Positions 17,474-33,854 of a DNA stretch of 64,000 bases are shown piece after piece (positions within the stretch are counted from its first letter, which is position 1; each line of letters opens with the position of its first letter). Made by a program: the position numbers and the translations under genes. This stretch comes from a virus (taxonomy: Duplodnaviria; Caudoviricetes): positions 32,001-96,000 of IMG/VR virus record IMGVR_UViG_3300013212_000088. The stretch is one strand, 5' to 3'. The notes under the pieces are model-generated. The model did not search any database and was not told the origin of the DNA. It worked only from the letters and a program-made list of their open reading frames with translations.

Positions 17474-18037
17474 TTAGATTAATCGTGCAAAATATGGTAA
17501 ATTTGTTCTAATAAAATTAAGATCAGACATAGACATAGAGCCCTTAAACTGTGACAAAATGGACTTAGCCTCTGTCATAAAGTTTTCTCTAGCATTAGGA
17601 GCTGAAGTCATAAATTGCCTATGTAATATTTGTAAATTCGGAATTAATTGATTGTAAGCATTATCTCTAACTTGTCCAGCAAAATCAGTGGCTTCGCCTT
17701 CCATGTATTTATTGAGCAATCTCTTTTTTTCTTCAGCTGGTATATTCATGGATTGTATTTGCAAAAGGATTTCAGGGCTGATTGTCATTTCTGAAGGTTT
17801 TCCACCTTCTTTAGAACCTTGAAAATCTCCGCCTTTAATTCCAACTCCAGACCATCCACCTAATTCGTTTGCTGATGATGCTGCAGAATTAACTCCACCA
17901 ATTTCACTTTTATCATCACTTTTTTGCTTTACTAGTTGATTATATAGTGGGCCTTTTGAAAATGGGCTTTGTGCAAGCTGAGACAATCTTTGGTTTTCTT
18001 TTTCAGAAGTCAACCTTGTAATTTTGTACATTGACAT
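17474..18037 (-). CDS. Hypothetical protein (MSMYKI.../RLSQLAQ)
   Basis: 187-aa ORF in a tight operon. Confidence 0.6.
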   Translation of the reverse strand: MSMYKITRLTSEKENQRLSQLAQSPFSKGPLYNQLVKQKSDDKSEIGGVNSAASSANELGGWSGVGIKGGDFQGSKEGGKPSEMTISPEILLQIQSMNIPAEEKKRLLNKYMEGEATDFAGQVRDNAYNQLIPNLQILHRQFMTSAPNARENFMTEAKSILSQFKGSMSMSDLNFIRTNLPYFARLI

Positions 18038-18306
18038 TATAATTTAACTCCTTTTTTTGCTAAAGCTGCAGATATTTCAGGAGATGTTTTCATCAAACCC
18101 TGTAATGATGATAATGAAGCATTAACTTTTTGTAAATACTCTAAAGCATTTTGATTTTTTACATCATCAGAAACATTACTTTTTGATATTCTGTAAAGTT
18201 CTGCAGTAACATCTTCGATAGTAAAGTTTGGAGTGTTTTTGGTGATAGCAGCAATCAAATTTGTTGATTGTTGGTTGTTTTGGGAAACTTTTATAAACTT
18301 GCTCAT
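18037..18306 (-). CDS. Hypothetical protein (MSKFIKVSQ)
   Basis: 89-aa ORF, stop overlaps the next start. Confidence 0.6.
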   Translation of the reverse strand: MSKFIKVSQNNQQSTNLIAAITKNTPNFTIEDVTAELYRISKSNVSDDVKNQNALEYLQKVNASLSSLQGLMKTSPEISAALAKKGVKL

Positions 18307-18315
18307 TTTTTCACC

Positions 18316-19530
18316 CTAATATAATGTATTTACTTCTTTATTTAGATTTGGCTTTGGTAATAGTTTAGTCAAATACTTTCTGTACAAATCTGTATCTTTA
18401 TCTAATTCTGGTTGAATTAAGTTCATCAATGCTCCCACTCGAAATAAAAGCGGTTTAACTTGTAATTGTATATCTGGGTCATCGTAAATATTTTTTAATG
18501 TTGGTAAATTAAAAAGAAATTCTTCTCTCTGTAATCCATTTTCATCAACAAAGTTTATTCTTGTGTTTAATATTTTAGATAACTGTCTACCATAATCTTT
18601 CAATTGAAGCTTTTGTTTATATTCCATAGGGTTTTGTGGTGGAACTCTCATTCTTTCTTCAATTGTTTTTGGCATCTGAACAATTACTTTCCAGTTTGTA
18701 TCTAATGCAGCTTTTTGTGTTCCACCAATAGCATTTTTTCTGAGCATTGAAGTCATTGCTTTATCGGTCATGGAAGCTTCTAAATTAGAAAATATTTTTA
18801 CATGAACATCTTCAGATTCTTTTGGTGAGAGTGCATTTTGAGATAAAAGATTACCAATTTCTAAAATTAGACTATTTTCACCACTTATTTTTACAAAAGT
18901 ATTTGGTAGTGCAATACCTGTAGCAGGACCTATACCTGATGATGGAAAAAGTAAAAGACGTCCATTAGGAGTTCTCTCAACAAAATTAAATGTGCCAGGA
19001 GAATTTTTATTACCTTGATAATTACCAGAAGCCATTGACGAAGCAATTATTGCTTGAAGATTAGCAATTTGACCCATAAATGGATATTTTTTCTTCACAT
19101 CATCATCAGACAGGTTATTAAAGAGATCCTCTATTTCATCTTGTCTTGCATAATTTGGGAACGTAATTGATAGATTTTGAGTACCTCTCGTAATATCGGT
19201 AGGATCTCTAAATGGCTGCAAATCAACTTGCGCATTTCCAGATATTGACTTAAGAGAATCAACCCACCATTTTAATATCATGGCAGATTCTGTGGCATCT
19301 CTTGTACCGAGAGATGTTGATAAATAACTAGTTAAATCAGATTTACTAGAAAATTGACTTTCATTTGCCATTCCTCTTGTTTGTAACTGCAAGCCTCTAC
19401 CCATTGAGCGTAGAGTATCCAAAATGCCTGCAGTTTTAAAAAGATTGCTTTGGGCTAAATGTTCAATAACTTCTTCATCATCAAAAGCTATAGCAGTGTC
19501 AATAACTGATTTTAAATGCTTGTTATTCAA
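18316..19530 (-). CDS. Hypothetical protein; likely TTG start at 19530
   Basis: GGAGAG SD precedes an in-frame TTG and removes the 32-nt overlap with clpX; N-terminus MNNKHLKSVIDTAIAFDDEEVIEHLAQSNLFKTAG. Confidence 0.6.
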   Translation of the reverse strand: MNNKHLKSVIDTAIAFDDEEVIEHLAQSNLFKTAGILDTLRSMGRGLQLQTRGMANESQFSSKSDLTSYLSTSLGTRDATESAMILKWWVDSLKSISGNAQVDLQPFRDPTDITRGTQNLSITFPNYARQDEIEDLFNNLSDDDVKKKYPFMGQIANLQAIIASSMASGNYQGNKNSPGTFNFVERTPNGRLLLFPSSGIGPATGIALPNTFVKISGENSLILEIGNLLSQNALSPKESEDVHVKIFSNLEASMTDKAMTSMLRKNAIGGTQKAALDTNWKVIVQMPKTIEERMRVPPQNPMEYKQKLQLKDYGRQLSKILNTRINFVDENGLQREEFLFNLPTLKNIYDDPDIQLQVKPLLFRVGALMNLIQPELDKDTDLYRKYLTKLLPKPNLNKEVNTLY

Positions 19531-32649: not shown

Positions 32650-32715
32650 TAGAAGGTTATAACATAAATACACTGTAATTAAAATTATATCTTGATTATC
32701 ATGTGAGAACTTAAA

Positions 32716-33174
32716 ATGCATAATATCGAATCAGAATTTCATTCACTCTTAGAGGAAATTACTCCGAACGCTCATTCAACAGACGAACAAGCTAGAATCA
32801 TTGCTGAAGCTTCAGCAATATATAGTAAAATCTCTTCTAGAAGAATTGCGAAAAGAAATAATCCAAGATTGGTTGAAGCTCAAATGACTGAAGCTATTTT
32901 ACAAGCTATGGGATCTGTTTCTAAATGGGATGAAAATTATGATCTTCCATTTGTAGATGCTCATGGGTTGTCTACCAACCAGATTCTAAGACAAGCAAGC
33001 AAAACCTCAATTACTAATTGGGGTACAAACAAAGTTCTTAATCCAGACTTATTAAAAGAAGATGATCAAGATGAAGATTTGTTTGATTTCAAGAATGGCG
33101 ACAATCAAGAACCAGATGCATTTACTGAAGAACCAAAACATAGAACAGATTTTCAATCAAACAATACTAGATAA
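32716..33174 (+). CDS. Hypothetical protein with acidic tail
   Basis: 152 aa; contains RLVEAQM; stop overlaps the next start. Confidence 0.6.
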   Translation: MHNIESEFHSLLEEITPNAHSTDEQARIIAEASAIYSKISSRRIAKRNNPRLVEAQMTEAILQAMGSVSKWDENYDLPFVDAHGLSTNQILRQASKTSITNWGTNKVLNPDLLKEDDQDEDLFDFKNGDNQEPDAFTEEPKHRTDFQSNNTR

Positions 33175-33854
33175 TGAAAAGATTAAAGATTGCTCAAATG
33201 CCACCAACTGATCCTGCTGCAGGAGCAATGGGTGCTGCACCTCCAATGGACCCTATGGGTGGTATGGGCGGTGGAATGATGGGTGGCATGAATCCTATGA
33301 TGGGCGGAATGGGTGGACCTCCAACACTACCAACTGCCATGCCTGGTGCAACTGGTGTCACTCGTGAAGAAATTGGTTCACCATTAGACAGACTTGGAAA
33401 AATCCTATATGACGTTGATATCAATTCTCTTTTGTTAACTCAACTAGGAGACGATGTTGAAGACACTGCACTTTCAGTATGGTCGCTTTATGGCGGGGAT
33501 GAACAAGGTGTTGATGTTGTGGTAGGTCGTACAGGCAAAAGAATTAAGAGAAAAGATGTCTCTAAAGAAGAAGAAGAAGCTGAACAAGAAAGAACAGAAG
33601 AAAAAAGATGGGAAAGATTACCAGCTGGAATGTCAATTGCTGATATAACTTCTTTAGACAAAATGGTAAATCAAATTAGAGGAATTGCATCAAGCGCAGT
33701 TAAGAACGAACTTAAAGCTCAAGGTGCTGCAGCTGGAGGCGGAATGCCAATGGCTCACAGAAATAGAGATATTGTAAAAATTGCCAGAAAACTCGATTTA
33801 ATTGGATTTTATCGCTTGGCAGACACAATATCCTCAAAGCTAACTAAAATCTAA
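33174..33854 (+). CDS. Hypothetical protein with M/G/P-rich low-complexity region
   Basis: MKRLKIAQM followed by PPMDPMGGMGGGMMGGMNPMMGG; C-terminal KIARKLDLIGFYRLAD helix. Confidence 0.7.
   Translation: MKRLKIAQMPPTDPAAGAMGAAPPMDPMGGMGGGMMGGMNPMMGGMGGPPTLPTAMPGATGVTREEIGSPLDRLGKILYDVDINSLLLTQLGDDVEDTALSVWSLYGGDEQGVDVVVGRTGKRIKRKDVSKEEEEAEQERTEEKRWERLPAGMSIADITSLDKMVNQIRGIASSAVKNELKAQGAAAGGGMPMAHRNRDIVKIARKLDLIGFYRLADTISSKLTKI

Follow-up and report, generated by a model that had tools for sequence, protein, structure and literature searches.

The DNA described here, a window of 64,000 nt corresponding to bases 32001-96000 of IMG/VR virus record IMGVR_UViG_3300013212_000088, encodes a number of otherwise unrelated proteins that share a short N-terminal tag. 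The record is a single 261,424-bp contig from an uncultured lake phage, with an estimated completeness of ~73%; the GC content is ~34%. About 10% of the proteins of this phage are tagged, and likewise in its relatives. The tag takes three forms: a hexapeptide beginning with Met-Trp-Tyr (MWY), a group of short starts (MSKF[IVR]K[VI][AS][AQ], MKRLKIAQ and NFRFAQ), and a hairpin of ~35 residues that resembles a tetratricopeptide repeat (TPR). All three end in hydrophobic-[KR]-x-[AS], often with Gln as the next residue. The N-terminal signal is real and specific to this lineage. In the reading that is ranked first, to which about an even chance is given, the tags would act as an address and cleavage label of the kind known from phage T4, written in a different code and read by the head protease of the phage. 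An earlier note on this DNA had described a signal shared by unrelated proteins; that signal is portable, under selection and strictly N-terminal, and its core is the motif of the head module.

The phage is a 261-kb relative of Bacillus phage G, which provides the best named match of its portal protein (31.6% identity over 58% of the protein) and whose gp27 resembles its 284-aa HK97-type major capsid protein. A megablast search of the DNA of the region against phage records returned no match. Between 243 and 247 genes were called with a simple caller that was blind to the motif; it mis-set some starts, and two MWY starts were corrected. For replication, two whole relatives were fetched, G001 (300 kb) and G003 (358 kb), whose ClpX-like proteins are 52% and 47% identical, respectively, to the one encoded in the window at 19562-20956 (-). 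Phage T4, which is AT-rich too, and the first 314 kb of phage G served as negative and comparison genomes, and 78 related loci around the ClpX-like gene were obtained. Coordinates of tags are positions in the window unless marked as genome positions.

Enrichment was measured by comparing the first 40 residues of 172 non-head proteins with interior 40-residue windows of the same proteins. The pattern [KR].[AS]Q occurred in 12 proteins against 2.4 expected (5.1-fold, p=6e-6), [KR][TLVIF]A[SQAG] in 13 against 3.4 (3.8-fold, p=4e-5), and hydrophobic.[KR].A in 27 against 10 (2.7-fold, p=2e-6). Shuffling of the N termini protein by protein also gave enrichment, in agreement with the 2.7-5.1-fold excess over interior windows. 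When the same patterns were applied unchanged to G001 and G003, enrichment was 2-6-fold depending on pattern and window (5-6-fold for [KR].[AS]Q), with p values down to 2e-10. T4 showed no N-terminal enrichment, the Ala-based patterns standing at 0.4-0.7-fold and [KR].[AS]Q at 1.7-2.2-fold, which is not significant. The description of the signal as lineage-specific is therefore borne out by replication in two relatives and by its absence from T4. In the 20 residues that follow a tag the fraction of polar or flexible residues is 0.61, compared to 0.54 at the same offset in untagged proteins (p=1e-8).

The MWY form has the consensus M-W-Y-[KR]-x-[AS], and a search of all frames found many open reading frames (ORFs) that start with M-W-Y-[KR]. 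After the two start corrections, the phage, G001 and G003 have 8, 10 and 13 MWY starts per genome, where 0.12-0.2 would be expected. The 32 MWY proteins represent 22 families that are unrelated by BLAST once the first 12 residues are removed. Across ~287,000 residues, the sequence WY[KRSQ]x[AS] is placed at residue 2 in 26 of 36 instances, at residues 3-12 in two and deeper in eight. At the nucleotide level, ATGTGGTAY followed by a Lys/Arg-type codon was found 48 times in five relatives and only twice for a reversed-pattern control; the corresponding counts were 2 and 2 in phage G, and 2 and 0 in T4. At these sites Tyr is written with either of its codons and Lys/Arg with several, and since synonymous codons vary, selection acts on the protein. 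A cause at the level of the nucleotide sequence was ruled out by this variation and by the variable distances of other tags from the start. One of the proteins with a six-residue MWY tag is an ADP-ribosyltransferase, and 43 of its 44 close and mid-distance database homologues, whose genes were called independently, start with MWY[KR]x[SA], directly after Met-1 in 41 and behind a called upstream extension in 2. The three most distant homologues are without it. The aromatic position that had been proposed for the signal as a whole holds for the MWY subclass only, the general rule at P4/P5 being a hydrophobic residue.

The tags are retained among orthologues. Reciprocal-best, genome-wide orthologues of tagged proteins were themselves tagged in 9 of 14 and 8 of 11 cases, as opposed to 0 of 122 and 2 of 148 for untagged proteins (Fisher 6e-11 and 8e-10). 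A family of 789-aa proteins, whose overall identity is 22-25%, reads NFRFAQ, LKTAA or FKTAA across the genomes. No homologues of the three genes downstream of the ClpX-like gene are detected by BLAST in the relatives; the genes that occupy their positions there have starts of the form MSKF[IVR]K[VI]A[AQ] or MWYKLAAS, or encode a hairpin with the ending hydrophobic-K-[TIV]-[AS]-Q. These comparisons indicate that the tags are portable, under selection and located at the free N terminus.

The hairpin form follows the pattern hydrophobic-hydrophobic-x-hydrophobic-A-x-x-LD-x-x-G-x-Y-x-E-A-[DN]-...-hydrophobic-x-[KR]-hydrophobic-[AS]. A hidden Markov model (HMM) built from 12 examples detected this module, at a domain E value below 0.001, in 6, 12 and 22 proteins of the three genomes, most copies being N-terminal. 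An AlphaFold model based on a paralogue alignment predicts a helix-turn-helix for residues 1-41, with a predicted local distance difference test (pLDDT) score of 80-94, followed by a disordered acidic tail. Before a library of 1.84 billion proteins was searched, it was fixed that more than half of the matches should have the module at a free end. The search returned 1487 clusters at E<=1e-3, an upper bound that includes some ordinary TPR proteins. Among the best 150 matches, 126 were N-terminal and 2 C-terminal, which is well over half, while 14 had at least three copies and 8 were internal. The N-terminal library hairpins end in [KR]x[AS] in 125 of 126 cases, compared to 12% of control windows, a comparison that is partly circular because these columns are in the profile. 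The large multi-copy library proteins that were inspected had no BLAST match to the phage proteomes, and one that was read was an ordinary bacterial TPR protein (LNNLAxLYxxQGKYxEAEPLY). Because the profile draws in bacterial multi-TPR proteins, the module is taken to be a solitary TPR-like hairpin. Pfam found no TPR match at E<=0.01 in seven module proteins, and the ESM Atlas gave no usable match for a module protein. Neither T4 nor the first 314 kb of phage G contains the module. Many of the small hairpin-tagged proteins (e.g., L014:12230-12562 (+), with paralogues in G001 and G003) consist of the hairpin and a strongly acidic, disordered Asp/Glu tail, and their genes stand in tandem arrays of up to about seven.

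The core of the tags recurs in the head module (genome 170527-191251), whose products include the portal, the large terminase and a protease-scaffold protein of 1401 aa (genome 172300-176505). In the 16 head-module proteins, [KR]xA[SQAG] occurs 8.4 times per 1000 aa, compared to 1.46 elsewhere (5.8-fold, Poisson 2e-24). The 1401-aa protein adjoins the portal, and its residues 86-241 match phrog_18299, a head maturation protease (E=1e-16); a weak NCBIfam match to a prohead protease fusion was also obtained. This protein carries 15 copies of the motif, among them MLKTAS ahead of the protease domain and KKA[SN] directly behind it, both conserved. The stretches YTNHKNDD and DVSMG, which have a putative role in the enzyme, are invariant across three relatives. 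The N terminus of the portal protein keeps L/F-K/R-T-A-A in all three genomes. Several head-module proteins also bear N-terminal tags, namely MWYRIKKAQFGGG (in which the start MWYRIKKAQ is seen), NIKIAAGFGG, MSKFRKVSE (g154) and a hairpin ending in KIAQ. The head sites and the N-terminal tags agree in their preferences at three positions (P3, Lys/Arg; P2, Thr/Ile/Leu/Val; P1, Ala). In the head region of phage G (L093, phage G 1-33856), protein starts include MKRLISKTAA (gp13), MKRLIKKAS (gp38), MKKSRLKKVS (gp10) and LKRLIKKSN (gp17), the starts of gp9 and gp20 are MKRLIKKAS-like too, and gp19 carries VKIAG, VKTAA, KVAS and KIAS. The head region of phage G is written in this same code, but neither the MWY form nor the hairpin accompanies it. 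The major capsid protein, encoded outside the window (genome 168976-169830 (-), L008:5476-6330), starts with MSMIKRN and is without a long propeptide. Between genomes in which the ClpX-like proteins are ~50% and the portals 67-70% identical, the identity of this protein is 96-97%.

Under the favored reading, the hydrophobic-[KR]-x-[AS] core would be the recognition and cleavage motif of the head-maturation protease, and this protease would be the N-terminal domain of the 1401-aa protein. The tags would bring unrelated proteins into the assembling procapsid and would then be removed, probably by a cut after Ala/Ser, which fits better than a cut after Gln because Pro can follow the Gln (FRFAQP). 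The predicted cargo, comprising the ADP-ribosyltransferase, J-domain proteins, an HtrA-like protease and many proteins without a recognized function, would be packed in the head and perhaps injected with the DNA. The closest precedent is T4, whose internal proteins have at their N terminus a capsid targeting sequence (CTS) of 10 residues that ends in the cleavage motif of the gp21 protease and suffices to load foreign proteins, whose packaged ADP-ribosyltransferase Alt loses a 7-residue propeptide, and whose relatives keep CTS-like sequences on varying proteins (PMC9026906). As in the CTS of IPI-III (10 aa) and the Alt propeptide (7 aa), the tags are very short N-terminal peptides on unrelated proteins, with an ending that would here too be the cleavage motif of the phage's own head protease; an ADP-ribosyltransferase is among the cargo, here a predicted one with a six-residue tag; and the loci of the tagged genes evolve fast, with nothing but the tag preserved. 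The systems differ in that the motif is hydrophobic-[KR]-x-[AS](Q) here and L/I-x-Glu in T4, in that the shortest form here has six residues with an invariant Trp-Tyr, and in that there is a second, folded form, the hairpin, which can be C-terminal. The share of the proteome that is tagged, ~10%, also sets the present system apart, as does the fact that it is known from sequence alone.

Other systems resemble the proposed one in part. In the jumbo phages phiKZ and SPN3US, the proteases gp175 and gp245, respectively, cut N-terminal propeptides from head and ejection proteins; apart from self-cleavage of the protease, all cuts identified remove N-terminal propeptides, which hold several copies of the motif (PMC10052503, PMC5694885). 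Many head-internal and ejected proteins are thus processed at a short consensus there as well, but these proteases cut after Glu (S/A/G-x-E) and the propeptides are long, without a shared portable tag, and the present phage belongs to the phage G lineage with its 284-aa HK97-type capsid protein. The literature that was consulted, on phage G processing, jumbo-phage capsid targeting and Lys/Ala cleavage, holds no description of such tags or of a Lys-x-Ala phage head protease, the virion data of phage G being beyond its reach. Herpesvirus assemblin (MEROPS S21) cuts its release and maturation sites at hydrophobic-x-x-Ala|Ser. It shares with the present system Ala at the presumed P1, a small residue next and a hydrophobic residue upstream, as well as a protease fused to a scaffold-like protein, with KKA[SN] here lying right after the protease domain. 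In the phage, however, Lys/Arg would be needed at P3 and Gln is common at P1' of the tags. A clan SH fold (S21, S77, S78, S80) with its Ser-His catalytic pair is conjectural for the phage enzyme, and herpesviruses are not known to tag unrelated cargo with the site. Encapsulin cargo-loading peptides are likewise short terminal peptides, at either end of the cargo, that dock diverse enzymes inside an HK97-fold shell; they differ in that they are not known to be removed by a protease, have another consensus and serve a non-viral shell.

Several observations weigh against this reading. Phage G, a cultured relative, shows weak N-terminal enrichment in its first 314 kb, 1.5-1.8-fold for one pattern. 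In this lineage, the processing of the tags and their cargo role are predictions from sequence. Compared to the head sites, the tags are richer in aromatic or hydrophobic residues at P5/P4; Gln stands at P1' in 43% of them rather than 21%, and Ala at P1 in 60% rather than 84%, such that they could be a signal related to the head sites but separate from them. The hairpin can be C-terminal, as in the protein encoded at 33174-33854 and its orthologues, and is sometimes without the K-x-A ending. The AlphaFold model of the protease domain, made from a three-sequence alignment, reached a pLDDT of 47 and did not confirm the protease fold, and a phmmer search of the domain against the PDB gave no match. 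The late promoter motif WAGG-N17-19-AGAAT occurs at 14 sites, two of them upstream of tagged genes, with no clear link to tagging. The placement of MWY strictly after Met-1 is what a machine that recognizes protein ends would need, and not what an endoprotease would need. Finally, tagged genes stand beside the ClpX-like gene in ten relatives at 47-52% identity (those that were checked), and ClpP is encoded in G001 and G003.

The last points bear on the ClpX-like ATPase as a serious rival reader of the tags. In this explanation, which is considered rather unlikely, the tags are terminal signals for the phage unfoldase, which would thread proteins from a free end, either to degrade them at set times together with ClpP or to translocate or remodel them by itself; the likeness to the head motif is then partial and coincidental. 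The protein encoded at 19562-20956 (-) is an AAA+ ATPase with a Cys-rich N terminus (Pfam AAA_2) that matches the NCBIfam ClpX model at E=9e-68, below the equivalog cut-off. Tagged genes flank its gene directly in the window, as they do in the ten mid-distance relatives examined, and related viral contig stretches with this ATPase number 326. The N-motif 1 of Flynn 2003 is reportedly hydrophobic-hydrophobic-basic-hydrophobic, into which W-Y-K-L would fit. ClpX substrates carry their motifs at the N or C terminus (PMC5415555), as MWY does strictly at residue 2 and the hairpin module at either end; phage G has ClpP in addition to ClpX (PMC12484599); and for jumbo-phage ClpX, Iyer et al. have proposed a possible role in protein translocation or in virion assembly (PMC7824862). 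This explanation leaves unaccounted for the conserved Ala/Ser two residues after the Lys/Arg, as well as the presence of MWY and short tags on head-module proteins. The 5.8-fold excess of [KR]-x-A includes sites that occur in several copies inside the protease-scaffold protein and other head proteins, and these sites cannot be terminal degrons. ClpP was not found in the 73%-complete genome of this phage or in G002, and the neighborhoods of ClpP, where it is present, are not tag-rich. Should the ClpX-like enzyme read the tags, they would constitute a phage-encoded degron system, which would also be new.

A second explanation, again assigned a low probability, is that the tags are docking peptides for one common partner, such as a DnaK/DnaJ chaperone, a hub or an assembly platform, and are neither cut nor used for capsid entry. 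The hairpin resembles a single TPR, a classic interaction unit, and its occurrence at the C terminus or without a K-x-A ending would suit such a role; among the proteins of the phage are DnaK and three J-domain proteins, and the MWY tag marks one of the latter. For the hairpin, an interaction handle that stays uncut is possible. Docking does not explain why the motif of the head proteins is near-universal at the end of the tag (at 125 of the 126 library hairpins, a partly circular count), nor does it explain the polar, flexible stretch that follows.

It is improbable that the tags are cut by some other protease, be it an S1, S8 or S26 enzyme of the phage or a host enzyme as in staphylococcal phage 80alpha. 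The window does encode three further proteases. The FNLNSFRFAQ and MKFNLSKLKTAA starts resemble the L27/80alpha motif LNLQFFA. In 80alpha, the capsid and scaffold proteins share an N-terminal peptide of 13-14 residues that is cut off by the host protease Prp, and the motif is also found on non-homologous proteins of other phages (PMC5744158). This parallels the present case in that a short N-terminal cleavage motif is shared by non-homologous phage proteins; it differs in that Prp is a host cysteine protease that also matures L27, that it cuts Phe|Ala, and that structural proteins alone are tagged there. Most tags here are without Phe, having Ile, Leu, Thr, Val or Lys before the Ala, and no Peptidase_Prp gene was found in the phage genome. 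The tags, with Lys/Arg at -3, are also unlike the sites of signal peptidase I, which requires a hydrophobic core together with a small residue at both -1 and -3. The S1 protease is itself tagged, and the motif is densest in the protease-scaffold protein. That there is no signal, and that Lys-rich N termini in an AT-rich genome, a loose pattern or gene-start errors produced the appearance of one, is very improbable: the pattern as first stated was loose, one of the nine examples listed fails and the simple gene caller mis-set some starts, but chance is ruled out by composition-preserving shuffles, interior windows, two replicate genomes, the T4 negative control, the reversed-pattern DNA control, independent public gene calls, the ortholog-conservation test and the position test set in advance.

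In the window, the tagged set comprises the genes starting at 18037, 18306, 19530, 21881, 22227, 24160, 33174 and 51631, with weaker members at 14840 and 49948. Two have the MWY form. The 98-aa protein encoded at 22227-22523 begins with MWYRLS (22227-22244 (+)), and its orthologues in five relatives start with MWYRLA, MWYRIA, MWYRKA, MWIKLA or MWYQAL; since the orthologues in three relatives are without the tag, it is gained and lost as a unit. The second, MWYKTA (24143-24160 (-)), is at once the tag of a 141-aa protein (gene 23735-24160) and the place where this protein truly starts. Read as the longest ORF, the gene would extend to 24208, but copies of this gene start with MWY[KR]xA in 8 of 9 related loci (6 of 7 distinct sequences, including the 98%-identical L015; the other has MFNLYK), and the stretches upstream of this start are short and non-conserved. 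As the copies begin at the Met of MWY, 24160 is taken as the true start, and the 16 codons upstream of it are probably not translated.

Three of the tagged genes lie together downstream of the ClpX-like gene. The 89-aa protein encoded at 18037-18306 begins with MSKFIKVSQ (18280-18306 (-)); in relatives this position is occupied by genes without BLAST similarity to it, yet their products start with MSKFRKIAA, MSKFVKVAA or MSESKKFRKIAA. In the 404-aa protein encoded at 18316-19530, which has a TTG start with GGAG upstream, the tag is formed by the N-terminal 35 residues (19426-19530 (-)) ending in NLFKTAG, with LFKTAG at 19426-19443 (-); proteins at the same position in relatives start with MWYKLAAS or have IIKLAQ, VRLAA or CKIAA. 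The 187-aa protein encoded at 17474-18037 has a putative tag that is degenerate and shortened, consisting of 24 N-terminal residues that end in LSQLAQ (17966-18037 (-)). The support for it is weak, and in eight relatives the gene at this position encodes a full ~35-aa hairpin ending in hydrophobic-K-[TIV]-[AS]-Q, the Lys of which is replaced here by Gln. Every motif string given in the earlier note is present at its gene, and for most of its nine proteins the motif holds as a tag; two are weak and one fails. For the last two genes, LFKTAG stands, and HLAQ (19450-19461 (-)), YKITRL (18011-18028 (-)) and LSQLAQ, the latter within RLSQLAQS (17966-17989 (-)), are weak or degenerate. The string that fails is RLVEAQM (32866-32886 (+)), which was rejected as a tag: it forms residues 51-57 of its protein within a conserved internal segment, reads RLVESKM or KTVEAKM in orthologues, and has no [KR] two residues before the Ala.

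On the other side of the ClpX-like gene, the 297-aa protein encoded at 20988-21881 has the N-terminal tag MGKSFNLNSFRFAQM (21837-21881 (-)), with FNLNSFRFAQM at 21837-21869. An NFRFAQ start is also found on the unrelated 789-aa protein g202, and the orthologues of the 297-aa protein keep FNLS or have RQFAQ, making conservation partial. The 226-aa Gly/Met/Pro-rich protein encoded at 33174-33854 begins with MKRLKIAQM (33174-33200 (+)), its G003 orthologue with MKKTILSQM, and residues 198-226 match the module HMM as a C-terminal copy of the TPR-like hairpin (33774-33851 (+)). The layout of this protein, an N-terminal tag, a long low-complexity middle rich in Gly, Met and Pro, and a C-terminal hairpin, is kept in the G001 and G003 orthologues. 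The HtrA/trypsin-like S1 protease (gene 50951-51631; Trypsin_2 E=5e-17) carries WRMKLGQ (51575-51595 (-)) just before its catalytic domain, and at this place its orthologues have FLREAQ or LVKTSQ, such that the letters turn over and the pattern is kept. Among the weaker members, a 122-aa protein has an N-terminal hairpin module (LIKLAEDLENEGF...; 14840-14953 (+); module HMM domain E=1e-4) without the closing K-x-A. The other, a 70-aa acidic protein (gene 49736-49948), has a candidate short tag, MAMIKRATG (49922-49942 (-)), suggested by family conservation, the start M[AS]MIKRATG[KR]IE being conserved in G001 and G003.

Few of the 84 tagged proteins of the three genomes have a Pfam domain. The domains found are ART-PolyVal ADP-ribosyltransferase, DnaJ, Fe/Mn superoxide dismutase, LysM with GH108, Trypsin_2, PcfJ, FHA and RyR; PHROGs named none of ten further tagged proteins. 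The Fe/Mn superoxide dismutase, a housekeeping-type enzyme encoded in G001 (L095:10481-11170 (-)), has an N-terminal extension with LLKLAG as a candidate tag. The genes for the J-domain proteins lie at 24209-25219 (+) and 49960-50934 (-) in the window and at genome 252850-253356 (+), and that for DnaK lies at 44298-46064 in the window. The same conserved block as the tagged genes includes a gene at 16694-17443 (-) for a 249-aa protein with a Cys-rich start, 50-56% identity in relatives and a Macro domain (E=3e-6). The Macro domain binds or hydrolyses ADP-ribose, and the genome also encodes the tagged ADP-ribosyltransferase. A PIN-PhoH fusion encoded at 25257-26669 (+) is 70-74% identical in relatives, far above its neighbors. 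A 177-aa protein of phage G (start MKRLIRKAS, with a YHGT stretch) was considered as an ADP-ribosyltransferase and dropped, as it had no Pfam match.

A more specific form of the capsid-targeting reading, held to be somewhat less probable than an even chance, is a two-tier address system of freshwater jumbo phages in which the MWY hexapeptide and the TPR-like hairpin would load a tenth of the proteome for co-injection and would be read by a Lys-x-Ala head protease. The cargo in relatives would then also include superoxide dismutase and lysozyme, and six residues would be the shortest capsid-targeting signal described. The reach of the system is suggested by the 1487 library clusters with the hairpin profile, an upper bound, and by about a dozen MWY proteins per related genome. 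If the tags do target proteins to the capsid, a six-residue tag would be handy for loading foreign proteins into capsids, and a Lys-x-Ala head protease would join the Glu-specific enzymes of T4, phiKZ and SPN3US. For a whole group of uncultured giant phages, the proteins that are packaged and injected, and that would act in the first seconds of infection, would become readable from sequence.

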